Source of the DNA: a plasmid
Strand: one strand, 5' to 3'
DNA length: 60,481 bases
Sequence record: NZ_CP024182.1
A program made the position numbers and the translations under genes. This document shows positions 2,297-55,678 of the stretch, piece after piece (positions within the stretch are counted from its first letter, which is position 1; every line of letters begins with the position of its first letter). The notes beneath the pieces were generated by a model. That model saw only the letters and a list, made by a program, of their open reading frames with translations. It was not told the origin of the DNA and searched no databases.

Positions 2297-2402
2297 TTAT
2301 CAGTAAGCATGAGCAAGTTATCTTGACGATTTGGCATTTTACTACTAAGATTTACAAAAATGTATTTACAATACTAAATAGATTGATTTAAAGTAGGCTT
2401 AA

Positions 2403-2699
2403 ATGAATTTTTCTTGGGATGAGAATAAGGCTGCCAGTAACTTTGAAAAACATAGTATTAGCTTTGAAGAAGCCATGCTCGTATTTGCTGACCCTTTTCT
2501 TTTGATGAGCCAAGATAGAATCGAAAATGGTGAAATGCGATGGCAGAGTATAGGAGAAATTGAAGGCATTGCTGTTATTCTGGTTGCCCATACTTGGTTT
2601 GATGATGACGGTGAGGAGTATATCCGTATTATTTCAGCCCGTCCTGCAGATAAGAAGGAAAGGAAACGTTATGAGCAAAATCGTTACTCGAAGTATTGA
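2403..2699 (+). CDS. brnT: BrnT-family toxin (type II TA ribonuclease, DUF497)
   Basis: 98 aa beginning MNFSWDENKAASNFEKHSISFEEAMLVFADP, the conserved BrnT N-terminus (FxWDxxKxxxNxxKHGxSFEEA). Confidence 0.8.
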   Translation: MNFSWDENKAASNFEKHSISFEEAMLVFADPFLLMSQDRIENGEMRWQSIGEIEGIAVILVAHTWFDDDGEEYIRIISARPADKKERKRYEQNRYSKY

Positions 2700-2976
2700 T
2701 TTAACCAATCCGCCTAAATTAAGCAAAGAAGCAAAGGCTCGTCTTGCTAAATTAAATGAGGCAGACATTGACTATTATGATATCCCACCGTTGACGGATG
2801 AATTTTGGGCGAACGCTGTTAGCAATCCGCTTTATAAGCCAACCAAACAAATCGCCACGGTACGCATAGACAGTGACGTATTGCTATGGCTCAAGTCTCA
2901 AGGCAAGGGTTATCAAACTCGGATGAATGCTATTTTAAGACAGGCGATGTTAACTGAGTTGGCAGAAACGCATTAG
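2671..2976 (+). CDS. brnA: BrnA-family antitoxin
   Basis: The ATG at 2671 overlaps the end of brnT, the typical TA coupling; the 138-aa track ORF from 2560 is an upstream over-extension. The C-terminus RIDSDVLLWLKSQGKGYQTRMNAILRQAM matches the BrnA RHH-like C-terminal signature. Confidence 0.7.
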   Translation: MSKIVTRSIDLTNPPKLSKEAKARLAKLNEADIDYYDIPPLTDEFWANAVSNPLYKPTKQIATVRIDSDVLLWLKSQGKGYQTRMNAILRQAMLTELAETH

Positions 2977-3214
2977 TCACCTACGATATCTGCTAACCCA
3001 AGTTTTTGTTTTAAAGGTAAATTTATGGGTTTGTTAGACGCTATTTAATAGACAAGTTAATTGACAAAAATAGGGGCGATTTGCCCCTGTTTTTTTGTGG
3101 AAATTGAAGTGTCTAAAAAACCAGCGTTTTATAAACACCTTGACCATTATCATTTTTATAAATACTTGATTAATTTCCTTAGCGTACTATTTTCTCCGCA
3201 TTCTGTGCTAATCC

Positions 3215-3312
3215 CAGTCTCAACTGTGAGCGTAGTTTGAATAGCAGTTTGCAATTTGTTAATTTGGCGTTCATTGCTCTGTTATTAAAAAGATTATGAA
3301 CAGGTTCTAACC
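3215..3312 (+). mobile_element. Remnant 3' end of an IS5-family (IS427-group-like) element
   Basis: The region translates to NCERSLNSSLQFVNLAFIALLLKRL*, nearly identical to the C-terminus of the IS5-family transposase at 35075-35602 (NCERHLNSSLQFTNFAFIALLLKRL*). It is followed by the same terminal sequence aagattatgaacaggttct. About 100 bp remain. Confidence 0.6.
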
Positions 3313-3327
3313 CCTAATGAGCTAGAT

Positions 3328-21181: not shown

Positions 21182-22590
21182 TGAACCGTCCCGGGATTGT
21201 CGGAGACCTAAAACTCTGAGACAATACCAAAATGAAAAGCAGACAATACGCAACAGAAGTTAAGACACGAGCCGTCGAATTACTGATTGAATCACAAAAA
21301 GATCATCCATCACTTTGGGCGGCCATCCAAGGCATTGCACCTGAGCAGCATGCTGCGCAAGGGCTGCACACCCGAAACCCTACGCTCGTGGCATCAAAAG
21401 CACCTAGCTAAGCAAAATCCTGTGACTATAAGCACTGAAAGCCAAGCCGCTCGTATCGCTGAGCTTGAGCGAGAAATCAGAGAACTCAAACAAGCCAACG
21501 AAATCATTCGCAAGGCAGCCGCTTTTTTCGCCCAAGCGGAGAAGGGCCGCAAACCCAAGTGATGGTCAAATTCATCGACGATGAAAAAGAAAAATATGGG
21601 GTCGAGTCGATTTGCAGGATACTGCCAATTGCCCCATCCACCTACTATCGCATCAAAGACGAGCAAGAAAACCCAGAAAAGCAAAGTCGACGCAAACAAA
21701 GCGACAAACATCTCATGGAGCAAATCAAACAGATTTGGCAAGCCAGTGGCTGTCGCTATGGCATTCGTAAAGTCTGGCATAAGCTTAAGCAAGACGGTTT
21801 GCCCAAATTAGGTCGTTGCACCGTTGAACGCTTAATGAAACAGCTTGGCATACAAGGCGTATGGCGAGGTAAAGGCAAAATCACCACCAAACAGCGACCA
21901 GGACAACAAAGTCCCGATGATTTGGTCAAACGCAACTTTAGCGCAGATGCCCCGAATAAGAAAAGACTCTTGCGGAGCAGTGCTCCTCAGGTCGCTGACT
22001 TTACCTACATTAAAACTAAATCAGGCTGGGTCTATACCGCCTTTGTCATCGACGTATTCAAGCGAGTTATTGTGGGTTGGAAAGTATCGAATCATATGGA
22101 CACTCAGCTGGTCTTAGATGCCCTAAATCAAGCCTTAGACGCTAGAGATAGACCAAGCGGAGTAATTCATCATTCTGATAAAGGTAGCCAGTATCTATCG
22201 ATTAAATACGGTGAACGGCTTAAACAATCGGGGCTTGCTGCCTCAGTCGGCACGACAGGCGATTCCACTTCGGGCATAGCCCTACGTCTTGCACTCGGGC
22301 AAAGCAGTGCTTCGCTATTTTCTCGCTCAGATAACGCCCTAGCTGAAAGCGTGAATGGGCTGTATAAAGCGGAGGTGATTGATTATTTGAAACAGGAATG
22401 GGATGGCGTAAATGATGTTGCGCTAGCAACCCTTGATTGGGTACACTGGTACAACCATGAACGATTGCATTCTACCAATGGATATGTATCGCCTGTTGAT
22501 GCGGAAAATATCTACTATTGTTCATTAATTCCGTCAGGCTATGCTGCCTGACTCAAGCAAACCTGTCTCCGATAAAACCAGGACGGTTCA
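21182..22590 (+). mobile_element. IS3-family insertion sequence, copy 1 (orfA frameshifted)
   Basis: It starts tgaaccgtcccggg and ends ccaggacggttca (imperfect IRs, TG…CA). OrfB at 21559-22551 (330 aa) has an rve/DDE domain (…HSDKGSQY…). OrfA is disrupted by a 13-nt indel relative to copy 2, splitting the HTH N-terminus from the leucine-zipper C-terminus (21287-21562). The element is about 97% identical to copy 2. Confidence 0.85.
21232..21562 (+). pseudogene. IS3 orfA, frameshifted (copy 1)
   Basis: The ATG at 21232 gives MKSRQYATEVKTRAVELLIES… and then hits a stop at about 21412. The frame continuing to 21562 (…TPETLRSWHQKHL…AELEREIRELKQANEIIRKAA) corresponds to the intact copy-2 OrfA C-terminus. 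Confidence 0.6.
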
Positions 22591-22642
22591 TTTAATGAGG
22601 TCAACGTACCTCTGTGTCATTTATCAAAAAAAGGGATTTATA

Positions 22643-28459: not shown

Positions 28460-29071
28460 TTAAGGGCTGGTAATGCCAAGCAGTTGTCTGCCCAGCTGCT
28501 TGAGTTCGCCTTTGCCTGTGACATATTGATACAGCGTGCTCACAGCCATATCATCAAGTTCTTTGCAGATATCGGGAATACTACGGGTTTGGTCGCTCAT
28601 CAGATGCTGGGCATAACGCAATTTCTCGGCGGTCATCACTCGGGGTCTTCCGCCTTTTCGTCCACGAGCTCTGGCAGCAGCGAGTCCTTCTTGTACCCGC
28701 TGGCGAATGATATTGCGTTCCATTTCAGCAAACGCCGCTTGGATTTGTAAGAAGGCTCTCCCTGTTGGGGTGGTGGTATCCATAGGGGAGTTGATAGCTT
28801 TAAAGCCAATGTCTTTACTGGCTAAATCATCAATCAAGATAATCAGGTCTTTGGCTAATCGCCCCAGTCTATCCAAATCCAGCACGACTAGCACATCATC
28901 AGGTCGTAGGTAAGCCAAGCATTCAGCAAGCCCTGGTCGTTCTGTGTTGCTCCCTGATGCCTTGTCAGTAAAAATCTTCTGACAGCCAATCTCGTTTAAC
29001 GCATCCAGTTGACGGTCAAGCAATTGTTTATCTTCTGCGGTTGAAACTCGGGCATAGCCTATCAAGCTCAT
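28460..29071 (-). CDS. tnpR: Serine recombinase (resolvase TnpR)
   Basis: 203 aa beginning MSLIGYARVSTAEDKQ, with the same orientation as tnpA. The res-like palindromes (for example acctatggcaaacatgtgttttccataggt) lie in 29072-29267 between tnpR and the IR. Confidence 0.9.
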   Translation of the reverse strand: MSLIGYARVSTAEDKQLLDRQLDALNEIGCQKIFTDKASGSNTERPGLAECLAYLRPDDVLVVLDLDRLGRLAKDLIILIDDLASKDIGFKAINSPMDTTTPTGRAFLQIQAAFAEMERNIIRQRVQEGLAAARARGRKGGRPRVMTAEKLRYAQHLMSDQTRSIPDICKELDDMAVSTLYQYVTGKGELKQLGRQLLGITSP

Positions 29072-29276: not shown

Positions 29277-29711
29277 CTATATGGTCCGAATTCTGTGCTG
29301 ACCCCTAATATAATCCATATATATAAAGTCTATTACGTCTTGGTCAAACTTATCTTGAATTCTTTTTTTTACTCTCTTTACCTGTTCATCAGTTTTATTC
29401 TTTGTATCATGGCCTTGAGATGTTGTATAACTTAGAATCACAGTATTTTCATTAGAAATGTCATTTAGATCAAATATAGGAGAAAAACAGCCCCCGATGA
29501 TTTCGTATGAACCGTCTTTAAATATGACAGAAATATTATGGATAGGTATCTCAACTCTGCTGCCAAAATAGTTGGATAAGTTTTTCAGGTAAGTACTCTT
29601 ATCACTACTAATATAGGCTTCCATCAGTACTTGATAAAGCCTTCTGGCTAAAGGATGAAATTTTACAGTAGAGCTGCTATTTAAACTAATTGTTTTGGCA
29701 GATAGCTTCAT
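29277..29711 (-). pseudogene. Hypothetical ORF interrupted by the Tn3-family insertion
   Basis: 144-aa ORF whose last 10 codons (…IRGQHRIRTI*) are encoded by the transposon IR. If the element (25325-29305) and one TAATA copy are removed, the reading frame continues about 32 codons into 25213-25319 (…DYIRAISILSLSKPGVMYSEIRELSQAKSKYIVNPKL*). Confidence 0.4.
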
Positions 29712-29765: not shown

Positions 29766-31161
29766 TGAACCGTCCCGGGATTGTCGGAGACCTAAAACTC
29801 TGAGACAATACTCTTATGAAAAGCAAACAATACAGGGCAGAAGTTAAGACACGAGCCATCGAGTTACTAATTGAATCACAAAAAGATTATCCCTCAATGT
29901 GGGCGGCCATCCAAGCCATCGCCCCCAAATTCGGGTGTACCCCTGAAACCCTACGCTCATGGCATCAAAAGCACCTACCTAAGCAAAATCCTGTGACCGT
30001 TACTACTCAAAGCCAAGCTGCTCGTATCGCTGAACTTGAGCGAGAAAACCGAGAACTCAAACAAGCGAACGAAATCATTCGCAAGGCAGCCGGTATTGAA
30101 GCCCAGGCGGAGCTCGGCCGCCCACACAAGTGATGGTCAAATTCATCGACGATGAAAAAGAAAAATATGGGGTCGAGCCGATTTGTAGAATACTGCCAAT
30201 CGCCCCATCCACCTACTATCGCATCAAAGATGAGCAGGATAACCCAGAGAAGCAATGCCGACGTAAACAAAGCGACAAACACCTCATGGCACAAATCAAA
30301 CAGATTTGGCAAGCCAGTGGCTGTCGTTACGGCATTCGTAAAGTCTGGCACAAGCTTAAGCAAGATGGCATGCCAAAGCTTGGTCGCTGTACCGTTGAAC
30401 GCCTGATGAAACAGCTTGGCATACAAGGCGTATGGCGAGGCAAAGGCAAAATTACCACCAAACAGCGACCAGGACAACAAAGTCCCGATGATTTGGTCAA
30501 ACGCAACTTTAGCGCAGATGCCCCAAACAAGAAAAGACTCTTGCGGAGCAGTGCTCCTCAGGTGGCTGACTTTACCTACATTAAAACTAAATCGGGTTGG
30601 GTCTATACTGCCTTTGTGATTGACGTATTTAAGCGAGTTATTGTGGGTTGGAAAGTATCGAATCATATGGACACTCAGCTAGTCCTAGATGCCCTAAATC
30701 AAGCCTTAGACGCTAGAGGTAGACCAAGCGGGGTAATTCATCATTCTGATAAAGGTAGTCAGTATCTATCGATTAAGTACGGTGAACGGCTTAAACAATC
30801 GGGGCTTGCTGCATCAGTCGGCACGACAGGTGATTCCACTTCGGGCATAGCCCTACGTCTTGCACTCGGGCAAAGCAGTGCTTCGCTATTTCCTCGCTCA
30901 GATAACGCCCTAGCAGAGAGTGTGAATGGGCTGTATAAAGCGGAGGTGATTGATTATTTGAAACAGGAATGGGATGGCGTAAATGATGTTGCGCTAGCAA
31001 CCCTTGATTGGGTACACTGGTACAACCATGAACGATTGCATTCTACCAATGGATATGTATCGCCTGTTGATGCGGAAAATATCTACTATTGTTCATTAAT
31101 TCCGTCAGGCTATGCTGCCTGACTCAAGCAAACTTGTCTCCGATAAAACCAGGACGGTTCA
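29766..31161 (+). mobile_element. IS3-family insertion sequence, copy 2 (intact OrfA/OrfB)
   Basis: It has the same ends as copy 1. OrfA at 29816-30133 (105 aa, HTH plus leucine zipper) ends in TGA and overlaps the OrfB start (GTG/ATG at 30130-30135, −1 frame). OrfB at 30130-31122 is 330 aa. Confidence 0.88.
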
Positions 31162-31370
31162 GTTTTAAAACTAGATAGCTCTGAAGATATTTAGGAAAAC
31201 CTTAATCCTAGTTAATCTAATTTTTCTTTAGCATTAAGTCGACTGTAAATTCTCGTTGTAATCTCATTTTGGAAATTTTCAATTTCTTCAATTAGTTGAT
31301 GTAATCTTCCTAATTGGATTATTGAATTATTTTTGATCATCATATAATTTCAATCTTAATTTGAAATGAT

Positions 31371-32150
31371 TTAATCAAGACTGATGTGTGTGGTTTTCAT
31401 GGGAATATTAACGTTCGTCCTTTTATATATATTTTTAGGTTTTGATGGGTTTTCAACATCTTTTAAACTGACCTTTTCAAAGATACCTTCATTTGCATTC
31501 AAATCCAGAAAGCCATTGATATATTTTATCGGCACAAAATCTAGCTCGCCAGTTTGCAGTTCTTCAGGCGTTACAATCGGTTTTTCGCCTACACTCTCTA
31601 TCAAGTAAGGATGGATAATATCCATGATTTTCAAGCTTGTATCAAAGACGTAATTAATTTCTCTATAGTACGTTTCTAGCTCGGTTTGGTTTTGATTAAA
31701 GACAAACAAGCTGTCATTACTCTCTGATGTTTTCTTCCTGCCTAATGTGATAAAACTCGCACCTATAAAAGCAACAATAATTGCTAAAATATAGTTTGAC
31801 CCCATCCCTATTAATACAATAGTACCTATGACACCAATAATAAGCCAATTTTTTTTAGCTTTACTGGTAACTTCTTTTTCACGTGCCACTAACTCATCAA
31901 AGCTATTTGCTTGAAGTACCTTTATCACATCGTTATTAGCACTTAGCCCAAGAATATAACCTTTACTTTTTTTGAAATTTTCAATGTAACTATTAGATTT
32001 CTTTACTAAAGCTTCGATTTCTTTGTCTTTTTCAAGTATAAACTGCCTATCTAATTCACTTATTGACATTGCTATATCCTTAATTTTCTTGGGGTGGCTG
32101 TATATTATAAGCAGGTAATTGTGTGCTAATCGTCTGAAGAGCATTGTCAT
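31371..32150 (-). CDS. Membrane protein with two central TM helices (about 233-259 aa), gene 4 of the AAA+ operon
   Basis: The likely start is the internal MSISELDRQ… at about 32069, because the upstream portion overlaps gene 3. It has a coiled-coil-like N-terminus, then TM helices WLIIGVIGTIVLIGMG and ILAIIVAFIGASFITLG, then a C-terminal domain. Confidence 0.5.
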   Translation of the reverse strand: MTMLFRRLAHNYLLIIYSHPKKIKDIAMSISELDRQFILEKDKEIEALVKKSNSYIENFKKSKGYILGLSANNDVIKVLQANSFDELVAREKEVTSKAKKNWLIIGVIGTIVLIGMGSNYILAIIVAFIGASFITLGRKKTSESNDSLFVFNQNQTELETYYREINYVFDTSLKIMDIIHPYLIESVGEKPIVTPEELQTGELDFVPIKYINGFLDLNANEGIFEKVSLKDVENPSKPKNIYKRTNVNIPMKTTHISLD

Positions 32151-32472
32151 TAAACAAGGCTTTATTCACGATTCGAGTGCTACTCTTCTTAATAAACTCT
32201 TGATTCGTATTTATAAAATAAAAATCCCAACTGACTAATACATCCTTGGTTTTATCATCAATTGAGAGTTTTAGTTCTCCCCCAGTCGGTGTTAGCTGCT
32301 CTTTTTGAGATATATTAAGAATTTCTTTATCGATGACAGGCGATATTTTTTGGATAAATTCACCAGTTTCTTGGGGCCTGGTCGCCGATAGTACTTCCGT
32401 GAAAATATCTTGGATAATATTTTGGGTAACAGGGGTATTTAAAATCTTAAGAAACTTAAGTGGTGTTAACAT
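32080..32472 (-). CDS. Hypothetical soluble protein (130 aa), gene 3 of the AAA+ operon
   Basis: It lies 22 bp downstream of gene 2 on the same strand. No motif recognised. Confidence 0.5.
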   Translation of the reverse strand: MLTPLKFLKILNTPVTQNIIQDIFTEVLSATRPQETGEFIQKISPVIDKEILNISQKEQLTPTGGELKLSIDDKTKDVLVSWDFYFINTNQEFIKKSSTRIVNKALFNDNALQTISTQLPAYNIQPPQEN

Positions 32473-32494
32473 AATGATTCCTAAATAGTTATTT

Positions 32495-32854
32495 TTATAA
32501 AGTTAATTTCAATTCTTTCTGTAAATCATCGGTAATATCAACTTTTTGACCTGTTTGCAAACGATTTCTAATATGCTCAGGAATGTCATTCGCAGTAATG
32601 GTTTTGGTGACAATGGTCTCGCTCCACTCATTAGTTCCGACGTTATAAGAGTAATAATTGAGCATAGACATCATTTTGGTATCAATTTGTTGAGCGAATG
32701 CCACCACACCATGCAAATCATTTTTGATATCTTGTGGTAACGCATTCCAAGATTTGATAAAAAATTCACGTATATCCTTCCAAAAAATCACAACGGCTGC
32801 CCCAATCGCTGCCCCTGCTAACAACCAAAGACCAATACTAACTGGATCAATCAT
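32495..32854 (-). CDS. Small membrane-anchored protein (119 aa), gene 2 of the AAA+ operon
   Basis: Its start overlaps the ATPase stop (ATGA). It has an N-terminal TM helix SIGLWLLAGAAIGAAVVIFW followed by a soluble domain. No recognisable family. Confidence 0.55.
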   Translation of the reverse strand: MIDPVSIGLWLLAGAAIGAAVVIFWKDIREFFIKSWNALPQDIKNDLHGVVAFAQQIDTKMMSMLNYYSYNVGTNEWSETIVTKTITANDIPEHIRNRLQTGQKVDITDDLQKELKLTL

Positions 32855-33792
32855 CTTTTTAACTCCTGCATTTTTTCTTCGCTAATTTGTGATTTAACAT
32901 AATCTTCACTCACTATATGATTCGTAATTGTAGTTTCTGGATGATTGCTTTGCTTTTTGTTTGCTTGGCTACTGACTCTGATTTCGTTGATAGCTCGTTC
33001 AAAATGGGATAAATCAACATAAGGGCAATTTTCACGGGCAGCGGATAAGGCTGCTTTTAAAACACATGTTGCGATATCACTGCCGGATAGCCCTTCTGAT
33101 TTTTCAGCCAAGACCTGTGCCGTCATATTGGCAGACAACGGTAGGCGAGTAGGAATGTACTTTTGCCATAATTTTTGACGATTTTCCAAACTTGGTAGTT
33201 CAAACAAAATATGCGACAAGATACGTCGCATAAAGGCACTATCATAGTTTTCGATGAAATTCGTGGTAAATATGATCAAGCCTTCATGATTATTCATCAG
33301 GGTTAATAGTACAGAGCGAGTTTGATTAACACTCACATCCGTTGAGTTTGACATATTGCTGACACGACGACTGAGCATGGCATCTGCCTCATCAAAGAAA
33401 ATAATTGCTTTTTCCTCTTTAGCAATTTTAAATAGTTTGGTTATGTTCTTTGATGTTTCACCGACGTATTTGGATTCTATCTCTGAGTAGTTAACAGCAA
33501 TGATGGGCTTGTTTAAAGCATGCGCAATAGCATGAGCTGCCATTGTTTTACCTGTACCAGATAAACCGTAAAGATTAATGGCTATTTGACGTTGGTGAGC
33601 ATGAGTTTTGGATAGTCCCCAACCATTAAATATGAGCTCGGCGTGTGTTTGATAGGATAAAAAGTCTTGTATGCCGTGCAAGGTACTATCGGGTAAGATT
33701 AAATCATCAATTGTAAATTGAGGAACAATCATGTTGAATTGTTCTTCAACAGGGATTTCGCTTTTTATAATGGGTTGGGTATCTATAGGCAT
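32851..33792 (-). CDS. Classical-clade AAA+ ATPase (stand-alone, 313 aa), first gene of an uncharacterised 4-gene operon
   Basis: Motifs present: Walker A GLSGTGKT, VGETSKNITKLF, Walker B IIFFDEADAM, sensor-1 TTN, Arg-finger region SAFMRR and a sensor-2-like LSGSDI. There is no protease or other fused domain. A promoter-like AT-rich region lies upstream at 33793-33990. Confidence 0.8.
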   Translation of the reverse strand: MPIDTQPIIKSEIPVEEQFNMIVPQFTIDDLILPDSTLHGIQDFLSYQTHAELIFNGWGLSKTHAHQRQIAINLYGLSGTGKTMAAHAIAHALNKPIIAVNYSEIESKYVGETSKNITKLFKIAKEEKAIIFFDEADAMLSRRVSNMSNSTDVSVNQTRSVLLTLMNNHEGLIIFTTNFIENYDSAFMRRILSHILFELPSLENRQKLWQKYIPTRLPLSANMTAQVLAEKSEGLSGSDIATCVLKAALSAARENCPYVDLSHFERAINEIRVSSQANKKQSNHPETTITNHIVSEDYVKSQISEEKMQELKR

Positions 33793-33959
33793 GTTACTTG
33801 GACGAATGTTGTGTTAATTGAGTTTTCAATTCTAACAATAATTGTAAGAAATTAGCAAAAAAAATGCAGTATTTTTAATTTTTTAGTATTAATTATTAGC
33901 TTGATAAGCTTACCTATATAATACTCCCCGAAAACTAGACCAAAAAATTGTAGCAAATA

Positions 33960-34736
33960 AGATAGAATAGCCCTTAAGAAAAGAGGTCTATCTAATGACA
34001 AAAGTTCGTAAGCGTCATAATGCTGACTTTAAAAGCAAAGTTGCTGTTGAAGCAATTAAAGAGCAAAAAACGATCAATGAGCTGACTGCTGAATACGGTG
34101 TTCATGCAACCCAAATCAGCAACTGGAAAAAGCAAGCCTTGGCTGTTATACCAACCGCCTTTAACACCAAACAGCAAGACAACGAACAAGCCCAGCAAAC
34201 CACTATCGATGAACTTCATCGGCAATTAGGGCAAGTCATTAGTGAGAGAGACTGGCTTAAAAAAAAGTCCTCACAGCTACTCTAAATGCTCGTAAACAAC
34301 TGCTAGAGCCTGACAATAAGGATTTTAGTACTCGTAAGCAATGTGAACTACTTGGTATTAACCGCTCAAGTCTGTATTATCAGCCAAAGCCCATCAGTGA
34401 ACTTGATGTTACCTTGATGAACCTGCTTGACGAACAGTACACCACAACCCCATTTTACGGGGTCAAACGCATGACAGCTCACCTTAAGCAATTGGGTCAT
34501 CTAGTGGGACAAAAGCGAGTCAGGCGACTACTACGGCAAATGGGGCTAGATGCCATCTACCAGCGTCCTAACACGAGTAAACCTAATCCTGAGCATCAAG
34601 TTTATCCCTATTTGCTAAGGAATGTACCCATCACCCGCTGTAACCAAGTGTGGAGTACCGATATCACTTACATTCGCCTGTCTAAGGGCTTTGTGTATTT
34701 GATGGCGGTGATTGATTGGTATAGCCGTTATGTTTT
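33960..34736 (+). mobile_element. Truncated IS3-family (IS150-group-like) element
   Basis: OrfA at 33995-34285 (96 aa, MTKVRKRHNADFKSKVAVEAIKEQKTINELTAEYGVHATQISNWKKQ). The slippery site A AAA AAG at 34261-34268 is followed by OrfB in the −1 frame from 34261 (…QVWSTDITYIRLSKGFVYLMAVIDWYSRYVL), which is cut at 34736 by the IS5-family insertion. No OrfB continuation is found after 35611. Confidence 0.7.
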
Positions 34737-35611
34737 AGAACCTGTTCACGATTAAAAAATATGCTAGGATAAGCTACGTAATCAATTAATAACCGAATCA
34801 ATCACCATGAGAAAAGCCTATCCAAGCGACATTAGTCGAAAACAATTTGAGCACATACTACCTATTTTAGAAAGTGCAAGGAAGAAGACCAAGCCAAGAA
34901 CGGTTGACCTTTATGACGTATTTTGTGGGTTATTGTATGTACTAAGAACAGGTTGCCAATGGCGACAGCTGCCCCATGACTTTCCCAAATGGCGCACCGT
35001 CCACTCGTACTTTCAGAAATGGAGCGAGCTTGACGAAGAAGGCAACAGCATTCTTAACCAAGCCTTAAAAAAAATTGGTCAAAAAAGCGCGAAAGAAGGA
35101 CAAACGTAAGGGTAAAACCAGTTTTATCATCATCGATGCTCAAAGCGTTAAGAACACAGATACCGCTAAACACAAAGGCTATGACGCAGGAAAGAAAGTA
35201 TCAGGGATTAAGCGCCATATTGCAGTAGACAGCCAAGGCTTGCCCCATGCTATCTGTATTACCACTGCCAATATCACCGACCGTGAGGGTGCTACAACGT
35301 TACTTCGTCAACATGCTAAACGCTTAAGCCGCGTAAAAAATGTGATGGTTGATGGCGGTTATCGAGGTGAGCCATTTGCTAATAGTGTTAAATCTATTTT
35401 AGGCGAAACCGTTACCACAGAAGTTGCCAAAAGAGATGAATTGCACACGTTTAAAGTCATACTAAAGCGATGGGTTGTAGAACGTTCGTTTGCTTGGCTT
35501 GAGAAAAATAGACGCTTATGGAAAAACTGTGAGCGTCATTTAAATTCGAGCCTTCAATTTACCAATTTCGCTTTCATCGCTTTGTTATTGAAAAGATTGT
35601 GAACAGGTTCT
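34737..35611 (+). mobile_element. IS5-family (IS427-group-like) insertion sequence with two-frame transposase
   Basis: Terminal IRs agaacctgttcac … gtgaacaggttct. ORF1 at 34807-35109 (MRKAYPSDISRKQFEHILPILE…GCQWRQLP) and ORF2 at 35075-35602 (DDE region …MVDGGYRGEPF…ERSFAWLEKNRRLWKNCE) overlap by 35 bp in different frames, the known frameshift arrangement of this group. Confidence 0.8.
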
Positions 35612-35650: not shown

Positions 35651-36343
35651 TTATTGAGCCAACATCCACGCCACCGCTGAATCAATATGTAAAAGTGTGG
35701 TGTCAAACACAGGTAGGGGGCTATTTTCTTCATTGATAAGCAGTCCGATTTCAGTACACCCCAAAATTACGGCTTGTGCACCCTGCGCTTTGAGTGTCTC
35801 AATGATTTGAATATATTGCTCGGCAGCGCTCCGTTTAATGTTGTTTAAACACAACTCATCATAAATAATGCGATGCACGATTTACTGATCAGATTCGTTA
35901 GGAATAATCGTTTGGATACCATATTTGGCTAAAGTTGTTTGGTAAAAGCCATCCGTCATACTAAAACTAGTCCCTAACAATCCTACTTTGTCCAAGCCTT
36001 GTTTAGCAATGGCTTGAGCCGTGATGTCAATCAAATGTAAAAATGGTACATCTATCGCATCTGTGATGAACTCAGCGACTTTGTGCATGGTATTGGTGGC
36101 AAGTAAGATTCCATCAACGCCTGCGAGTACTAAGCGTTTTGCAGCATCCGCTAACATCTCACCTGCTTGTTGCCAGTTGCCTTGTTTTTGTAGTTGAGCA
36201 ATTTCTTCAAAGTCGAGATTATAAATCACTAGCCTAGCCCCATGATTAGCGCCAAGACGTTGATTGATTTGTTCATTGATTTTTTGGTAGTAGCTGATTG
36301 AACTTGCGGTACTCATGCCGCCAATGATGCCGAGTAGTTTCAT
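35651..36343 (-). pseudogene. Aspartate/glutamate racemase-family gene, frameshifted
   Basis: Two adjacent minus-strand ORFs (153 aa at 35882-36343 and 75 aa at 35651-35878) in different frames together cover an Asp/Glu racemase. The first half reads MKLLGIIGGMS…ILLATNTMH and the second reads …VILGCTEIGLL. Confidence 0.6.
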
Positions 36344-36562: not shown

Positions 36563-38236
36563 ATGCTAACCAATCCCCAAACTAAATATCAACGATTCAC
36601 AGTTGAGCCCTTTTCCACTCGCACCTGGTGTAACAATCAGCTTACTACTGCCCCACGTTGGTGCTCATCTGACTTAAGAGATGGCAACCAAGCGTTAATT
36701 AACCCTATGGATACGGACAAGAAGTTGTATCTATTCAATCATTTGGTGGCGATTGGCTTTAAAGAAATTGAAGTGGCTTTCCCTTCAGCATCGGATACCG
36801 ATTTTAACTTTGTGCGTCAATTAATCGATGACAAGCTTATTCCTAACGATGTATGGATTCAAGTCATTACCCAATCACGTCCTGAACTTATTGCTAAGAC
36901 CTTTGACGCATTACAAGGCGCATCCAAAGCGATTGTCCATTTATACAATGCCACTGCCCCCGTCTTTCGTGAGGTGGTATTTAACCAAGACAAAGCCAGT
37001 ACCATAGAATTAGCAGTAAATGGGGCAAAGTTGGTTAAACAGCATTGTGAGCAAAATCCCAACACCCAATGGCAATTTGAGTATTCACCAGAAACTTTTT
37101 GCTTTACTGAGCGAGAATTTGCCCTAGAGATTTGTGAAGCGGTTAAAGATGTCTGGCAACCAACAGCAGATCGGCCCATGATTATCAATCTACCTGCCAC
37201 GGTTGAGATGAATACACCCAATGTATATGCCGATCAGATTGAATGGTTTATGCAAAATTTTTCGGATTTATCGCATATTACGATTAGTATTCATCCGCAT
37301 AATGACAGGGGCACCGGGGTAGCCTGCGCTGAACTTGCCATGCTTGCTGGGGCAACCCGAGTCGAAGGCTGTTTATTTGGCAATGGTGAACGCACCGGTA
37401 ATGTTGACTTGGTAACACTGGCGTTAAATCTATATACCCAGGGCATTTATCCCAACTTAGATTTTTCAAACCTTCAACAAACGGCTAATGTAATGACCTA
37501 TTGCAATGAGCTGCCGATTCATCCACGACATCCATATGCCGGTGAACTCGTATTTACTGCCTTTAGTGGCTCTCACCAAGATGCGATTAAAAAGGGTTTC
37601 GCTAAACGTCAAGAAAATCCAAATAGTATTTGGAATGTGCCGTACTTTACCATTGATCCTAAAGATATTGGTGCAACCTATGAAGCAGTCATACGGGTCA
37701 ATAGCCAATCTGGTAAAAGCGGTGCAGCATGGCTGCTTGAAACTCATCATGGCATCAAATTACCCCGTGCGTTTCAGCTGGACTTTAGCCAACAGGTTAA
37801 AGACTTTACCCACCAGTATGAAAAAGAAGCCAGTATGGCTGAGATTTGGCAGTTGTTTAAAGAACGTTATGGCTTAAACTTACCTCAGCAAACAGGCTAT
37901 CAAGTACAAGGCTTTACTGGGAAAAACAATGCCAGTGACTACCATTTAATGGTTGAATTTTCTAACCCCAATGAGTTAATAATTGACGGTATAGGCAATG
38001 GAATACTCTCTGCCTTTGTAAATGCGATTAACAGCCATTTCGATAGACGATTTAGCATTGAGCAGTATGATGAGCATAGTCTAGGTAAAGCCAGCGATAG
38101 CCAAGCGATTTGTTATGTGGTGCTAAAAGAAGATGATAAGCGGTTTTATGGGGTGGCGATTGGCGATGATGTCGCAAAAACGTCCATGCAGGCGGTTTTG
38201 AACGCTGGGATTGGAGCAGCGGATAGATTGCAATAA
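36563..38236 (+). CDS. leuA: 2-isopropylmalate synthase, long (557-aa) form
   Basis: Motifs LRDGNQALINPMD and HPHNDRGTGVA. The C-terminal LeuA allosteric/dimerisation region is present. The length matches the type-2 (actinobacterial-like) LeuA. Confidence 0.85.
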   Translation: MLTNPQTKYQRFTVEPFSTRTWCNNQLTTAPRWCSSDLRDGNQALINPMDTDKKLYLFNHLVAIGFKEIEVAFPSASDTDFNFVRQLIDDKLIPNDVWIQVITQSRPELIAKTFDALQGASKAIVHLYNATAPVFREVVFNQDKASTIELAVNGAKLVKQHCEQNPNTQWQFEYSPETFCFTEREFALEICEAVKDVWQPTADRPMIINLPATVEMNTPNVYADQIEWFMQNFSDLSHITISIHPHNDRGTGVACAELAMLAGATRVEGCLFGNGERTGNVDLVTLALNLYTQGIYPNLDFSNLQQTANVMTYCNELPIHPRHPYAGELVFTAFSGSHQDAIKKGFAKRQENPNSIWNVPYFTIDPKDIGATYEAVIRVNSQSGKSGAAWLLETHHGIKLPRAFQLDFSQQVKDFTHQYEKEASMAEIWQLFKERYGLNLPQQTGYQVQGFTGKNNASDYHLMVEFSNPNELIIDGIGNGILSAFVNAINSHFDRRFSIEQYDEHSLGKASDSQAICYVVLKEDDKRFYGVAIGDDVAKTSMQAVLNAGIGAADRLQ

Positions 38237-50234: not shown

Positions 50235-53200
50235 TTATTTTGATAAGTCTGATAGTGATTTTTTATCAACTACTTGTCTGAGATTACTCAAAAACGCAAG
50301 TTGAAAGGCTTCATCTTGGATAAAAAGTTTGTAAAAATCAATTTCTTTTTTTCGGTCTTCGACGATGATGTCTTTGACCAGTTTTTCAAATTCTAGGTTG
50401 CGATGTTGTTCATCTTTCGTGGTCAGATACTTCTGTTGAAAGTCAGGATGGTCATAAATTCGTTGTGCTAAGTTGATAAATTTCATTCGTTGTTCTTCTG
50501 GCGTAATATGCCAACTTTTAAACCATCGCTCATTAAAATCTGCGATGATTTTATCTAGGTTGTTGGTTTTTGCTTCAGTATGTACGCCAATCACGTTAGG
50601 GTTGCTCGGGTCGATAACCGCTTCTTTTTCGTCTAATGTTATCTTTGAACCTAAAGCCGTTCTTTCAATCGCATAAGTATTTAAATCAATCGATTCTAAC
50701 AAGTCATCGATATCATCATCTTCCTGGGTGCGAATGTTAAGCTCAGGAATTAATGCTTTTAATAACCAAAACAATCGCTCCCATTCGATTTTGTTAAACG
50801 GCATAATGGATGCAAGACGGCTATAGAGTTTGACAAATTGTTTGGCTTGCATTTTAAATTCGATTTTTGCGTCATCGCTAAGTTCCAACCCGTGGTTAAA
50901 GCGTTCTGCCAAAATATTGATTTTGCCTTGCAAGGTTTCCATACCGGCACCGCCAAAATAGGCTTCGGCATAGTCAATGACTTCATGGGGTTCATAAACG
51001 CCTACCGCATCCAGTTCAGTTTTGATATCGCTAAGTATATTGACATCGGTCGCTTGGCTTAGGGTGGTGACTGTAAAGTATTTATCAAATGCGGATTTGA
51101 TATGTTTTAATTCATTAAAAAAGTCCAACACAAACAAATCTTCGGTTTTTTTGTCGTACTTATTCGCCGAGCGATTGAGCCTTGACAGCGTTTGCACTGC
51201 CAGTACATCTCGCAATTTTTTATCGACATACATGGCGGTGAGTTTGGGTTGGTCAAAGCCTGTCAGATATTTATTCGCAACGACCAAAATTCGGTAGTCA
51301 TCGCTATCAAATTTTTCTTTGGTTTTGCTATCTTCAAAGCCGTTGATTTGGCTCTCGGTGTAGCCAATGCCGTCCACGATTTTTTCACCACTAAAGGCTA
51401 TCATGGCTTTAAAGGGATTGCCTTTTTGCTCTAATAAGCGGTTAATCGCTTGGTAATAACGGATTGCCATTTCGATATTTTGTGTGACTATCATGGCTTT
51501 GGCATGACCTTTTAGGCGTTTTTTGGCAAAAATATTGCTGATAAAGTGATCAAGCATGATTTCGGCTTTGACATCGATGGTTTGCTGTTGGCGTTCGACA
51601 TACGCTTTCAGGGCTTTTTGTGCCTTGTTAGAATCAAATGCTGGGTCATTTTCGACCGATTTTTGAATCTCGTAGTAAGATTTGAAGGTGGTGTAATTGC
51701 GTACCACATCCAGAATAAAGCCTTCTTCAATGGCTTGCTTCATGGAGTACAGGTCAAAGGGAGTAAAGCGACCGTCGGCTTGTTTTTCGCCAAATTTTTC
51801 TAGGGTGCTGTCTTTTGGGGTAGCCGTGAAAGCAAAATAGCTGCCATTGCCCCGCATTTTGCGTGATTCCATTGCCTTTATAATGCGGTCTTGGTTATCG
51901 TCCATATCACCGTCTTTTTCGTTATCGGTATCAATACCCAAAGCGGTATTCATGCCATCGTGAGCCATTCCGCTTTGTGAGCTGTGGGCTTCGTCGATGA
52001 TAATAGCAAAGTTCTTGTCCGCCATTTCGCCAATGTCGTCTAGGATAAAGGGGAATTTTTGAATAGTGGTGATGATGATTTTTTTGCCGTTTTCTAGAGC
52101 GTTGCGTAGGTCTTTTGAGCGTTCGGCATGGGCGATAATGCCTTTGACTTCGCTAAACTGCTTGATATTGTCTTTGAGCTGTTTGTCCAAAATTTTGCGG
52201 TCAGTCACTACAATTACCGAATCATATAGCGGCTGTTCTAGCCCTTTCGCCCCTTTTGCTTGTTCGCTGTGCGGGTAGGCTTCTATAAGCTGATAGGCAA
52301 GCCATGTGATGGAGTTGGACTTGCCAGACCCTGCGGAATGCTGAATCAGATAGCGTTTGCCAACGCCATTGCCAGCGACGTCTTGCACCAATCGCCTTAC
52401 CACGCTCATTTGATGGTAGCGGGGGAAATACAGGGTCATGTCGCCAAGATTGGGCTTTTTGATGTCGGGATTATCACAGCCTAATCGCACAAAATGGCTG
52501 ATGAGATTGACTAAGCTGTCAGGCTGTAACACTTCGTTCCAAAGGTATTCGGTGTTAAAGCCGTTGGGATTGGGTGGGTTACCTGCGTTGCCGTGGTTGC
52601 CTTTATTGAACGGTAAAAAGAAGGTATTTGCCCCGTTTAGCCGTGTGGTCATGTAGGCTTCTTGGTTGTCTAGGGTAAAGTGGACAATGGCACGGGCAAA
52701 GTTAAATAACGGGTCATCAAAACTTCTATCTTTTTTGTATTGTTCGATGGCGTTAAAACGGGCGGTTTGGTTTTTATGGGTGCTTTTGAGTTCTAGGGTG
52801 ATGATAGCTAGACCGTTTAAAAAAATGACCAAATCCACCGAGTTGCCGTTATGCTGGCTATAACGAACTTGTCGACTAACGGTAAGGATGTTTTGTCGGT
52901 AGTTATCACGGGCGATTTGGCTAGAGCTTGCTAGGGGCTTTGGGTAAAGAAAGGTTAAGTTGGCGTTGTCCACGTCCAAGCCTTTTTTGAGTATGTGCAG
53001 TATGCCGTATTTTTTGATGGTATTGTTGAGGCGGTGGATGATGGTTTTTTGCCAGTCTGGGTTGTGTTTGGCGATGGTGTCTAGGGCGGTTTGTTGGCTA
53101 TTATGCAGAAATTGCCAAAAATAGTGGCTGTCGATGGCTTGGATTTTGTCAAAGTCAGCAGAGTTGCCTTGTTGATAGCCGTTAGCGGTTAGGGCGGTGA

Positions 53201-53249
53201 CGATGTGGTCTTCGAGTTCTTTTTCGCTAAAGTTGGTAAGTTTCTGCAT
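50235..53249 (-). CDS. hsdR: Type I restriction enzyme R subunit (HsdR)
   Basis: 1004 aa. It has an N-terminal nuclease region and DEAD/helicase motifs (…VVTDRKILDKQ…, DEAHSSQSG). Its size and layout resemble EcoR124-like HsdR. Confidence 0.9.
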   Translation of the reverse strand: MQKLTNFSEKELEDHIVTALTANGYQQGNSADFDKIQAIDSHYFWQFLHNSQQTALDTIAKHNPDWQKTIIHRLNNTIKKYGILHILKKGLDVDNANLTFLYPKPLASSSQIARDNYRQNILTVSRQVRYSQHNGNSVDLVIFLNGLAIITLELKSTHKNQTARFNAIEQYKKDRSFDDPLFNFARAIVHFTLDNQEAYMTTRLNGANTFFLPFNKGNHGNAGNPPNPNGFNTEYLWNEVLQPDSLVNLISHFVRLGCDNPDIKKPNLGDMTLYFPRYHQMSVVRRLVQDVAGNGVGKRYLIQHSAGSGKSNSITWLAYQLIEAYPHSEQAKGAKGLEQPLYDSVIVVTDRKILDKQLKDNIKQFSEVKGIIAHAERSKDLRNALENGKKIIITTIQKFPFILDDIGEMADKNFAIIIDEAHSSQSGMAHDGMNTALGIDTDNEKDGDMDDNQDRIIKAMESRKMRGNGSYFAFTATPKDSTLEKFGEKQADGRFTPFDLYSMKQAIEEGFILDVVRNYTTFKSYYEIQKSVENDPAFDSNKAQKALKAYVERQQQTIDVKAEIMLDHFISNIFAKKRLKGHAKAMIVTQNIEMAIRYYQAINRLLEQKGNPFKAMIAFSGEKIVDGIGYTESQINGFEDSKTKEKFDSDDYRILVVANKYLTGFDQPKLTAMYVDKKLRDVLAVQTLSRLNRSANKYDKKTEDLFVLDFFNELKHIKSAFDKYFTVTTLSQATDVNILSDIKTELDAVGVYEPHEVIDYAEAYFGGAGMETLQGKINILAERFNHGLELSDDAKIEFKMQAKQFVKLYSRLASIMPFNKIEWERLFWLLKALIPELNIRTQEDDDIDDLLESIDLNTYAIERTALGSKITLDEKEAVIDPSNPNVIGVHTEAKTNNLDKIIADFNERWFKSWHITPEEQRMKFINLAQRIYDHPDFQQKYLTTKDEQHRNLEFEKLVKDIIVEDRKKEIDFYKLFIQDEAFQLAFLSNLRQVVDKKSLSDLSK

Positions 53250-53259
53250 GCGTGGCTCG

Positions 53260-54564
53260 TTAGATTTTTATTTTGCCTGTGACGGCTTGGTTGATTAGGA
53301 TATTTTTGTATTCTTTTAAACGGTCGATTTGGGTTTGGTAACCTTTAGATGTTTTATAAATTTTCTCATTCAAATCATCTAAATAATTAGCAATTTTTTC
53401 TTGTTCCTGTAAATTCGGATAGGGAATTCTAAGATTTTTAATCATGTCTTGATTGATATTAGGTTGTCCACCACCATAAGAATTTGAAATTAAATGATTC
53501 TTTGCAAATTGCATGACGTAAAATATATATTTCATAAAAACTTTATCAGAATTCCCCAACACACAGCACGCTTGATTCGTCGTGCTTTTAATTTTAAGTA
53601 AACCGACCTTACCAATAGTTGCTCCATACATTGCAATCACTAGACTATTCTCATCATACAATTTCAAAGAAGAAAATTTACTCATTGCTTTTTGGTTAAT
53701 CTTTCTGCTAGTTGCAACGATGTAATCATTATTTAAGTCGCCAGTTTGTAACCAATTAATGTCACCAGAATCATAATAACTCAAATCACTACTGGTTGGA
53801 GTTGTACCACTTCCAATCTTATTAAATAAATGTGTATTCTTTTTAACGTCCCAATGCTCGGGAATATTACCTATCCATTCCACACCACTATTTTTCATAG
53901 GGGCGTTAGGGTTTAAGCCTTTAGTGACGGCATTTTGAATGACGATTTGTTTATATTCATTGAGTTTTTCAATTTGCTGTTGTTTTAGAGCAATCGCTTG
54001 GTCAATTTGGGCGGTTTTTTCAGCTAAAAAAGAAACTATCTTTTTTTGAACTTCAATATTTGGATAAGGTACAACAACGTCACCAAATTTATCAAAATAT
54101 AGTCGTAATCGCATATCCATAATGCCACGAGAATGTCTTTTTAACTCAGACGTACATTGCGGTGAGCGAAATAACAAATGATAAAAAATACCTTCAATTG
54201 GCATTTTTGGCTTTAAAACGTCATATGCTGGGCTAGTAACGCCGTCATAATCTGATAAACCAATTGCCCCCATCCATGCCAAAAGCTTATTTACAACAAT
54301 ATCGCCTTTTTCTACAATCAAATAGCCGTCCGTTGTCGTTGCTCTATTACCCCTTTCTTCAAGCTCTTTTCTAGGTTTAACTCCAATATCCGTATAAACC
54401 GAAAGCAACTCGCAATCATTATTTTTTGGGGCGAATTTCATCACCAATCGAAAAATATTTTTAACTTTTAACAAATCCCAGTCGCTTGGAATTTTCCCTA
54501 ACCAATCCACACCGCTGTCTTTATAACTGTCATACGTCGCATAACTCATTGAATTTACTACCAT
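53260..54564 (-). CDS. hsdS: Type I restriction-modification specificity subunit (HsdS), two target-recognition domains
   Basis: 434 aa. It has duplicated halves with the conserved helical spacers (…AEKTAQIDQAIALKQQQIEKLNEYKQIVIQNAVTKGL… and …DLNEKIYKTSKGYQTQIDRLKEYKNILINQAVTGKI). Confidence 0.85.
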   Translation of the reverse strand: MVVNSMSYATYDSYKDSGVDWLGKIPSDWDLLKVKNIFRLVMKFAPKNNDCELLSVYTDIGVKPRKELEERGNRATTTDGYLIVEKGDIVVNKLLAWMGAIGLSDYDGVTSPAYDVLKPKMPIEGIFYHLLFRSPQCTSELKRHSRGIMDMRLRLYFDKFGDVVVPYPNIEVQKKIVSFLAEKTAQIDQAIALKQQQIEKLNEYKQIVIQNAVTKGLNPNAPMKNSGVEWIGNIPEHWDVKKNTHLFNKIGSGTTPTSSDLSYYDSGDINWLQTGDLNNDYIVATSRKINQKAMSKFSSLKLYDENSLVIAMYGATIGKVGLLKIKSTTNQACCVLGNSDKVFMKYIFYVMQFAKNHLISNSYGGGQPNINQDMIKNLRIPYPNLQEQEKIANYLDDLNEKIYKTSKGYQTQIDRLKEYKNILINQAVTGKIKI

Positions 54565-54702
54565 TAAATTTATTTCGTTTAATTGACTAAACAGCCAAAA
54601 ATCGGTATAATACGCCTTAATAACTCCCCAAGTTCTTGCCCATTATGGGAATAACAAGTCTTGGGGCTATCTATTTCTAGCGAACCAAAAATTTTAAAAT
54701 CG

Positions 54703-55638
54703 CTATCGCCATAAGCGCCACGCTTTCAAATCCGCCAAACTCATCGACTTTGGCAAGCCAAACTGCTCCAAACTCACTTTATTATTGCTCATCTGCGGAA
54801 ACTCATCCAACGTATCTAAGAACCGCTGTCCCCAAGTCGAATTTGGGCAAATAAACGTTAACATCCGTTGCATCAGGCAGAAGTAAAGCAATACCTTGGC
54901 AGGGTCAAACCTTTGAAACTCTGGCTCCAACCCCTTTAGCGACGCTTTAAATACCACATGGCGATTCCACAAACGCCCATGATGTGCCGAGATATTGCGA
55001 ATCAAATTGAAGGCGTGTAATTGAGTTTCTAACAATTTGGCACTGGGCAAGCGATAATATTTAGCAATCGCTTCTTTATCCGCCCGTCGCATGATTTTAT
55101 ACAAAATCGACATCGCCCCAAAATCCCACAGCTCACACCCTGCCCAAACGGGAATATCGTGATAATACTGCTGATGATGTTTGACAAAATCGCTGTGTTT
55201 TTCTCGAGCTATCACCGCTTCATAACGAGCCACCCAATCGGCATGCCTAACCTTATCATCAAAATACTGTTCATCTAAATGGGCTAATGAGTCAAATGAG
55301 CCAAGCCTATCGGCAATTCGTACTCGCATAGCCACTTCGATTCGCTCCAACGCATCCAATGCCAACTGACGCAGTTTTTTATCGAACATATACAAGGCTT
55401 TGATGTCTTGAAAATGGCTGTTTGGCTCAAACGCATTATCGACTGTACCGTCTGGCATCACTTGGCGAAACACGTACGCATAACCGCTCAACCGATAGTA
55501 GCCAATTGTTCGTAGATAGCCCAATGCTTTTTTATTATCATCAACAATTAAGCCACGCTGTTTATAGGTATCTAACTGTTGTTGTACCGTTTTATAAGGC
55601 TTAGGCGGTAACTTGGTGGGCATAAATTTCCTTAGCAC
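54703..55638 (-). CDS. Abi_2-family abortive-infection protein (AbiD/AbiF-like)
   Basis: 311 aa with the Abi_2 signature segments TIGYYRLSGYAYVF and LIRNISAHHGRLWNR. It is embedded between hsdM and hsdS. Confidence 0.75.
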   Translation of the reverse strand: MLRKFMPTKLPPKPYKTVQQQLDTYKQRGLIVDDNKKALGYLRTIGYYRLSGYAYVFRQVMPDGTVDNAFEPNSHFQDIKALYMFDKKLRQLALDALERIEVAMRVRIADRLGSFDSLAHLDEQYFDDKVRHADWVARYEAVIAREKHSDFVKHHQQYYHDIPVWAGCELWDFGAMSILYKIMRRADKEAIAKYYRLPSAKLLETQLHAFNLIRNISAHHGRLWNRHVVFKASLKGLEPEFQRFDPAKVLLYFCLMQRMLTFICPNSTWGQRFLDTLDEFPQMSNNKVSLEQFGLPKSMSLADLKAWRLWR

Positions 55639-55678
55639 AAATCAAAAATATCTTTGCATTATAGCAAAGTCAGACCCA

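Follow-up and report, generated by a model that had tools for sequence, protein, structure and literature searches.

The plasmid sequence NZ_CP024182.1, analysed here as a single stretch of 60,481 nucleotides (the window), carries at 31371-33792 a compact unit of four minus-strand genes, which encode an AAA+ ATPase (g1) and three small partner proteins (g2, g3 and g4; Table 1). The unit is a mobile accessory gene set that recurs, in the same gene order, in many unrelated genomes, and its association with defence islands is real but not overwhelming. It is read here, at somewhat less than even confidence, as a mobile conflict module in which the fourth protein would act on the membrane and would be restrained by the ATPase until the cell is infected or the element is lost. 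No published description of the gene set was found in the literature searched, coverage of which was incomplete, and to that extent the suggestion that this is a previously undescribed system stands.

That suggestion came from an original prediction made from the letters of the DNA alone, and the architecture that it proposed was borne out. The stop codon of g1 overlaps the start codon of g2 in the sequence ATGA, the gaps that follow are 22 bp (g2 to g3) and 10 bp (g3 to g4), in line with the stated maximum of 22 bp, and the genes lie at exactly the coordinates given. The AT-rich island between insertion sequence (IS) elements, put at about 2.8 kb, measured 2.75 kb. Its GC content is 0.31-0.39 over ~31000-34000, against 0.42-0.49 in both flanks, and IS elements stand exactly at its two edges, IS3 copy 2 on one side and a cluster of IS3-family and IS5 elements on the other. 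Likewise, hydropathy agrees with the predicted N-terminal transmembrane (TM) segment in the second protein, the soluble nature of the third and the two TM helices of the fourth. That none of the small proteins could be recognised by eye also proved accurate, as g2, g3, g4 and a fifth-gene remnant, g5, had no significant match in Pfam, NCBIfam, PADLOC or PHROGs; against PADLOC-DB 2.0, these four returned 0 families at E values up to 0.1.

Conservation and distribution of the cassette

Hidden Markov models (HMMs) of the partner proteins were built from cassette loci and searched against all 150 fetched loci, which are cited below by L numbers where they need to be told apart. Wherever a close relative of the ATPase (at least ~46% identity) is intact, the cassette comes after it; this amounts to ~19 distinct loci, and the order elsewhere is that of the window: the ATPase, an anchored protein of ~117 amino acids (aa), a soluble protein of ~125-155 aa and a protein with 2-3 TM helices. 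The partner families are hereafter called G2, G3 and G4. Conservation of the quartet, on which the original prediction had been made to depend, thus extends across several lineages. Carriers include Serratia sp. S1B, an enterobacterial-type Logan contig and two gammaproteobacterial metagenome-assembled genomes (MAGs), as well as Moraxella lacunata, Ignatzschineria and Thiolinea; Bacillus sp. dmp10, the B. cereus group and a Bacillota MAG; and a 5.2-kb Providencia plasmid (p146130-5k), of which the cassette makes up nearly half the length.

G2 and G3 were also found together in loci that had no part in HMM training, namely the IMG/VR loci L085/86, L087 and L143, the 10-kb plasmid pZM22-1 of Comamonas resistens and L152. 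Among the 150 loci, both families occurred only beside ATPases of at least ~46% identity, and neither occurred in the ~110 loci with more distant ATPases. Because homologues of all four proteins keep this order in many unrelated genomes, the operon goes beyond a chance arrangement of reading frames. Two loci considered as further members, L014 and L017, were rejected, their ATPases being followed by cobalamin-type or unrelated genes.

The protein encoded by g3 is identical to KSH_09700, a plasmid-borne hypothetical protein of Moraxella osloensis, and the window appears to be one complete plasmid of this species. The public copies of G3 are all annotated "hypothetical protein." At the DNA level the operon is without a match in PLSDB, and the IS elements that flank it match many M. 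osloensis plasmids there. DNA queries made of the L003 and L018 operons matched none of 5,426 complete E. coli genomes. A scan of viral contigs seeded by a single ATPase returned nothing, and seeding with the ATPase alignment found viral contigs.

The ATPase

The g1 product matches PF00004 (1.7e-28) and AAA_lid_3 (1.3e-07), and contains the elements by which classical-clade AAA+ proteins are recognised: Walker A at G76-T83, pore loop-1 at K108-Y109-V110-G111, Walker B at I130-D137 (D134/E135), sensor-1 at N178, arginine fingers at R189/R190 and a lid with the motif GLSGSDI at 234-240. Walker A, the pore loop, Walker B, sensor-1 and R189/R190 are invariant across an alignment of 15 homologues. 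This set of motifs is the signature expected of an active hexamer that threads its substrates. The protein consists of one domain with a short N-terminal tail; it contains neither a separate N-domain nor a fused effector, and hydropathy showed no TM segment in g1 or g3. The earlier description of gene 1 as a complete classical AAA+ ATPase without a fused effector therefore agrees with the domain matches and with the invariance of its motifs.

The best named family for g1 is IetA, with a PADLOC match at 2.8e-36 (123.7 bits) and a match at 3.5e-32 to the NCBIfam model IteA (NF042959). Because g1 reaches only 112 bits on this equivalog model, for which the cut-off is 510, and scores similarly against PAN, FtsH and Cdc48, the protein is called IetA-like at a distance, as judged from its sequence, and not IetA. 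What the operon shares with IetAS (Gao_Iet) is a classical AAA+ ATPase, short and limited to one domain, that is encoded beside a partner of potential toxicity, on plasmids and in defence islands. The partners differ: IetS is a subtilisin-like S8 protease, whereas the window operon encodes no peptidase, g2-g4 have no IetS match in Pfam or PADLOC, and in place of the protease are three small proteins of unnamed families, two of them membrane-anchored. Neither feature that defines IetAS, a score above the IteA equivalog threshold and an adjacent S8 protease, was found here. Among phage proteins, g1 matches phrog_3757 (4.9e-62), a family without an assigned function.

A weak match to PADLOC TRIP13 (1e-13) invites comparison with the TRIP13-HORMA pair of CBASS, in which an AAA+ remodeller is likewise paired with small partner proteins. 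The likeness goes no further, since there is no CD-NTase here and no HORMA match for G2 or G3, and the operon does not qualify as CBASS type III.

More distant relatives of g1 (L020-L084 and L119-L148; 30-37% identity) are proteins of 600-1100 aa, and several of them adjoin Pvc16_N and eCIS_core genes, which marks them as Pvc15/Afp15-type ATPases of extracellular contractile injection systems (eCIS). Pvc15 handles effector cargo through terminal signal peptides (PMC11495950), a logic of terminal-tag recognition to which that of the module proposed here may be likened, and the two ATPases belong to the same broad AAA+ branch. On another reading, the operon would be what is left of, or has branched off from, an apparatus for cargo loading in contractile injection systems or phage tails, made up of a Pvc15/Afp15-type ATPase and small baseplate-like proteins. 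This is scarcely credible: the eCIS ATPases are encoded within tail-like clusters of ~16 genes, whereas g1 is a single domain of 313 aa whose neighbours are IS elements, with no tail genes nearby, and Pvc16_N and eCIS_core genes occur only beside the relatives of 30-37% identity. In sum, the earlier statement that the unit could be matched to no named system holds as far as membership goes, but the ATPase is not without kin, having IetA at a distance and Pvc15-type ATPases among its relatives. Other distant ATPase relatives adjoin TPR, amidoligase or prokaryotic YEATS genes.

The small partner proteins G2 and G3

Hydropathy places the TM helix of g2 at residues ~5-24. G2 begins with Met-Ile in every locus, and the 4-nt overlap between the ATPase stop codon and the G2 start codon was seen in 11 of 17 loci. 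In the AlphaFold model of G2 (predicted local distance difference test score, pLDDT, 83), the TM helix is continuous with a long helix, and three long antiparallel strands come next, before a helix, a short strand and a helix. In the model of G3 (pLDDT 80), residues 1-23 are disordered, and the fold that follows has a long helix, then three long strands, then a helix and a short strand. A glycine pair just before the three long strands of G3 is invariant at G65 and nearly so at G64, and F86 is also invariant. These models suggest that the soluble domain of G2 and the whole of G3 share one small alpha/beta topology and may be structural paralogues.

Profiles made from the alignments of G2, G3 and G4 returned noise from PDB sequences, with best E values of 0.007-0.08 to helical or designed proteins, and Foldseek found nothing for G3 in BFVD. 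An exhaustive phmmer search with g2 defined 129 clusters at 50% identity, nearly all of 107-131 aa; word-indexed homologue searches, whether with g2 alone or with a concatenated profile of G2, G3 and G4, recovered near-identical sequences only.

The phmmer search with g2 also brought in P0223, a protein of 1308 aa without a convincing Pfam domain, in which five stretches match residues ~61-99 of G2 (strand-turn-strand), a pattern that would fit a repeat protein or may be due to chance. In a Bacillota MAG (L016, 1252-1641), two mini-reading frames between the ATPase and G2 genes each encode only the N-terminal TM peptide of G2 (MIPVIVAGAA... and MIPAIVAGVV...). Extra G2 paralogues are encoded at L087 6623-7090 and L143 6705-7151, where they lack the TM helix and are placed after G3, and at L011 9243-9635, where the paralogue has the helix and stands ~1 kb downstream of the cassette.

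The G4 proteins and loss of a fifth gene

The g4 protein has, by hydropathy, an N-terminal helical region, a TM hairpin at residues ~73-112 and a cytoplasmic C-terminal domain, and it ends in ...THISLD-COOH. Its start was taken as the ATG at 32069; the longest open reading frame (ORF), starting at 32150, was rejected because it would overlap g3 by 71 nt and because gene calls elsewhere (P0136, P0137) give 232 aa. BLAST found no relatives of the window g4 among the fetched loci. Alignment of the products of the fourth genes revealed a C-terminal domain of ~70 residues that is homologous across loci, and the resulting G4 HMM recovered it at 7e-23 in the window g4, which had itself contributed to the alignment used for training, and at 3e-15 in p230 of L152, a protein independent of that alignment. 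A match of this domain to the eS25 winged helix was non-significant (E 0.41). The tail is also retained: a hydrophobic-x-hydrophobic-Asp motif forms the exact C-terminus in 8 of 16 products (for example ...HISLD in the window and in Bacillus, and ...LEVD in Serratia), and in 13 of the 16 it is found among the final 24 residues. By contrast, the membrane part differs between loci. Hydropathy and flanking basic residues predict that all soluble domains of G2, G3 and G4 are cytoplasmic, on the same side of the membrane as the ATPase.

The closest relative of the window operon is L152 (GCA_003940445.1 contig, 1775-3544), in which the ATPase shares 83% identity with g1. Its g4 orthologue is largely deleted, 31532-31990 of the window having no counterpart there, and two further G4 paralogues follow, of 240 aa (...TIVLD) and 230 aa (...YISLD). 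Over 32 aa, the g5 reading frame of the window shares 44% identity with the N-terminus of the 240-aa TM protein (E 2e-4 by blastp, 1e-4 by tblastn), and IS3 copy 2 ends, at 31164, 47 nt beyond the g5 stop codon; the rest of g5 has been lost beside this element. The L152 paralogues and the g5 stump indicate that the ancestral unit had tandem G4 cassettes, one of which the window copy has lost, and that G4 genes behave as tandem cassettes, easily gained and easily lost.

One G4 variant, encoded upstream of the ATPase gene, contains a Pfam Imm_superinfect domain (8.8e-10). This raises the alternative that the system provides a non-lethal exclusion of superinfection or entry, in which G4 would stop DNA or protein from crossing the inner membrane and the tethered ATPase would assemble or recycle G4, or pull on phage proteins. 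Exclusion genes are common in prophages and viral contigs, and the module occurs in or beside both, with an ATPase that matches a PHROG family. However, the Imm-like domain is present in a single variant, the other membrane parts are mutually unrelated, and we know of no exclusion system that uses an AAA+ unfoldase; on balance, exclusion as the whole function is judged improbable.

Proposed mechanism

The reading that is favoured here, in which a mobile conflict module keeps a membrane-acting protein in check, can be cast as a sequence of steps. The core would be the g1 ATPase, a predicted hexameric AAA+ unfoldase, translationally coupled to the membrane-anchored G2 and to the soluble G3 of the same predicted fold, and one or more interchangeable membrane-hairpin proteins of the G4 type would complete the unit. 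G2, probably with G3, would serve the ATPase both as adaptor and as tether on the inner side of the membrane. The cytoplasmic C-terminal domain and tail of G4, often ending in hydrophobic-x-hydrophobic-Asp, would be the part that the ATPase then grips, and threading of the tail would extract or remodel the membrane hairpin. G4 itself would be the output, acting by membrane damage or by a block to entry. The ATPase would restrain it until infection or element loss shifts the balance, as in the logic of an ATPase that serves as antitoxin in IetAS, and the outcome would be phage defence, for which the original prediction had suggested membrane-disrupting abortive infection, or addiction to the element.

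The tether, adaptor and engagement steps are suggested by the intact ATPase, the coupling of its gene to g2, the co-inheritance of G2 and G3, the cytoplasmic placement of the soluble domains and the conserved C-terminus of G4; from these we infer formation of a complex, the role of G4 as client and effector, the trigger and the defence phenotype. Restraint of G4 by the ATPase, as opposed to its activation, is preferred because IetA, the nearest named relative, is reported to be the antitoxin of IetAS (PMC13069673).

A precedent in principle, by analogy, comes from Msp1/ATAD1 and FtsH, classical-clade hexamers that sit on the cytoplasmic side of a membrane and have a pore loop of the KYVG type, although the homology covers only the AAA+ core. 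Msp1/ATAD1 and FtsH have their TM anchor within the ATPase chain itself, and their clients are membrane proteins that are engaged via an exposed terminal tail. In the module, the anchor would instead come in trans from G2, no protease domain is present and the client relation is putative. A bolder claim, that the window operon is the founding example of an undescribed and widespread immune or addiction family, in which an ATPase tethered in trans by paralogous mini-adaptors (G2 and G3) extracts or remodels the tail-tagged G4, is possible and should be regarded as doubtful.

Genomic neighbourhoods and weighing of the evidence

A regulator of the HTH-WYL-WCX (helix-turn-helix, WYL and WCX) type lies directly upstream of the ATPase gene in 5 distinct loci, one of them where the Moraxella catarrhalis prophage Mcat5 ends. 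This arrangement recalls WYL-regulated defence operons, for which CapW-CBASS serves as an example (PMC9122588), with the differences that the effector genes are unrelated and that the versions in the window, the other Moraxella loci, Bacillus and the small plasmids lack the regulator. At the Mcat5 locus (L001; KR093629.1 46050-47875), the WYL gene is followed by an ATPase homologue (51% identical) at the prophage end. Because the deposited sequence breaks off within this ATPase gene, the boundary assigned to the prophage probably falls inside the system.

Known defence genes were found within 6 kb of the module in 4 of ~14 informative loci: L003, with type I restriction-modification (RM) and AAA_15/21 genes; L005, with SNF2, NERD-UvrD and a second WYL; L006, with Bil and an M78-UvrD helicase; and L013, with a type III restriction enzyme. 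Mobile elements carry the module in 9 other loci, including the window plasmid, the 5-kb and 10-kb plasmids, three viral contigs, the end of Mcat5 and an island with YfjJ, DUF932 and YqaJ. In 3 loci the neighbours are housekeeping genes: SMC in L008, EptA in L011 and PFK in L015. The large SMC protein beside the module in L008 was rejected as a defence gene, being a housekeeping SMC despite its PADLOC matches. Co-localisation with defence islands, which the original prediction had proposed to examine, is seen in the four loci named above and not in the three among housekeeping genes.

Several of these observations weigh against a conflict module built as proposed. Defence neighbours are clear in no more than those 4 of ~14 loci, and three loci have housekeeping neighbourhoods. 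No informative structural relatives of G2 or G3 were found in the searches described above, and the adaptor role is for this reason a guess; paralogy of the two is claimed only as a matter of predicted topology, because hhalign of G2 against G3 gave a probability of 9% (E 0.0036). A membrane hairpin is not obligatory in the fourth protein, because that of L085 is a Sel1-repeat protein without a TM segment and because M. lacunata encodes the soluble G4 C-terminal domain and a DUF805 membrane protein in separate genes. The window copy itself may not be fully functional, given that it has neither the WYL gene nor an intact fifth gene. Finally, carriage on small plasmids beside toxin-antitoxin loci fits a role in addiction equally well.

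This last point leads to a reading in which the operon is purely an addiction or stability module, with G4 as a membrane toxin, the ATPase and G2/G3 as a labile or ATP-dependent antitoxin, and no role against phage. The cassette takes up nearly half of the 5.2-kb Providencia plasmid, it adjoins three toxin-antitoxin loci and parA on pZM22-1, and the window copy is itself plasmid-borne. IetAS, too, was first found as a plasmid-stabilising toxin-antitoxin system and was later recognised as anti-phage (PMC13069673). Nevertheless, many copies are chromosomal or lie in viral contigs, and several have RM or Bil genes as neighbours and a WYL regulator in front. Such neighbours, like a WYL gene upstream, are typical of defence loci. 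Since defence and addiction are not mutually exclusive, as IetAS illustrates, addiction alone is a plausible but unlikely account of the whole family.

The housekeeping neighbours at some loci, and an AAA+ core that resembles PAN, FtsH and Cdc48 about as much as IetA, would also agree with a housekeeping or stress function in quality control of membrane proteins, similar to that of FtsH or Msp1 and without a protease. Against this stand the patchy and horizontally mobile distribution of the operon, its place in an AT-rich island between IS elements, its absence from the complete E. coli genomes (in DNA searches with two homologous operons), its carriage by plasmids and phages, the variable tandem G4 cassettes and the WYL genes upstream in some loci, all of which make quality control very improbable.

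Significance

ATPase-based mobile conflict modules of the AAA+ type are known; what is new here is the set of three unnamed partner families and a membrane anchor that would be supplied in trans. Should the module serve defence or addiction, it would add three protein families that lack any annotation, as well as a new architecture in which an unfoldase is tethered in trans and its membrane clients can be swapped. To our knowledge, the mechanism by which IetA-like ATPases act against phage is still unknown, and the module would then offer a second and more tractable handle on how such ATPases control toxic partners. If the extraction reading is true, a principle of membrane-protein extraction like that of Msp1 would be at work in the conflict of bacteria with mobile elements.

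The family is small (the G2 clusters described above) and the unit, at 2.5 kb, occurs in tractable hosts, including Serratia, Providencia, the Bacillus cereus group and Moraxella. Current annotation tools would leave the region as an "ATP-binding protein plus hypotheticals." These prospects are tempered by the large number of candidate defence operons and by the trimming of the window copy by IS elements.

The locus and the rest of the plasmid

The features of the locus and of the RM region are collected in Table 1. IS3 copy 2, at the downstream edge of the island, is 91.7% identical to copy 1 (21182-22593). At the upstream edge, the start of the second IS3-family element falls at ~33907-33917, and there is no WYL regulator gene in the ~115 bp left between it and g1. 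Upstream of g1, a sigma-70-like sequence, TTGCTA-18-TAGAAT with a TG (33858-33829), was noted as a match to the consensus only. A terminator-like hairpin with a T-run lies within the g1 coding sequence at 33210-33232 (-); as 1 such element was found against 2.0 expected in shuffled sequences, it is probably a chance match.

Table 1. Coordinates of the four-gene operon, its borders and the RM region in the window.
Feature	Position	Strand	Description
g1	32851-33792	(-)	313 aa, AAA+ ATPase
g2 (G2 family)	32495-32854	(-)	119 aa, N-terminal TM helix and cytoplasmic alpha/beta domain
g3 (G3 family)	32080-32472	(-)	130 aa, soluble
g4 (G4 family)	31371-32069	(-)	232 aa from ATG at 32069
g5	31212-31343	(-)	43-codon 5' remnant of second G4-type gene
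Upstream region	33793-33910	(-)	~115 bp between g1 and IS3-family end
IS3-family copy 2, downstream island edge	29766-31164	(+)	HTH_Tnp_1 and rve domains
Second IS3-family element, upstream island edge	33910-35602	(+)	orfA 33995-34285, orfB fragment 34414-34755
IS5-family element	34807-35602		Cuts transposase of second IS3-family element
hsdR	50235-53249	(-)	Type I RM
hsdS	53260-54564	(-)	Type I RM
Abi_2 gene	54703-55638	(-)	Between hsdM and hsdS
hsdM	55679-58072	(-)	Type I RM

The type I RM system and the Abi_2 gene that had been reported on the replicon were located on its minus strand at 50235-58072, 17-24 kb from the operon. Just past IS3 copy 2 lies a further AT-rich stretch (GC 0.33) with an ORF of 144 aa (29277-29711, minus strand) that has no family match, and adjoining it a gene (28460-29071, minus strand) whose product resembles, by eye, a serine recombinase or resolvase. 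On the far side of the island, also judged by eye, adjacent ORFs of 153 and 75 aa (35651-36343, minus strand) resemble a split gene for an Asp/Glu racemase and an ORF at 36563-38236 (plus strand) resembles a gene for 2-isopropylmalate synthase, so that plasmid-borne genes of a metabolic kind adjoin the IS cluster.

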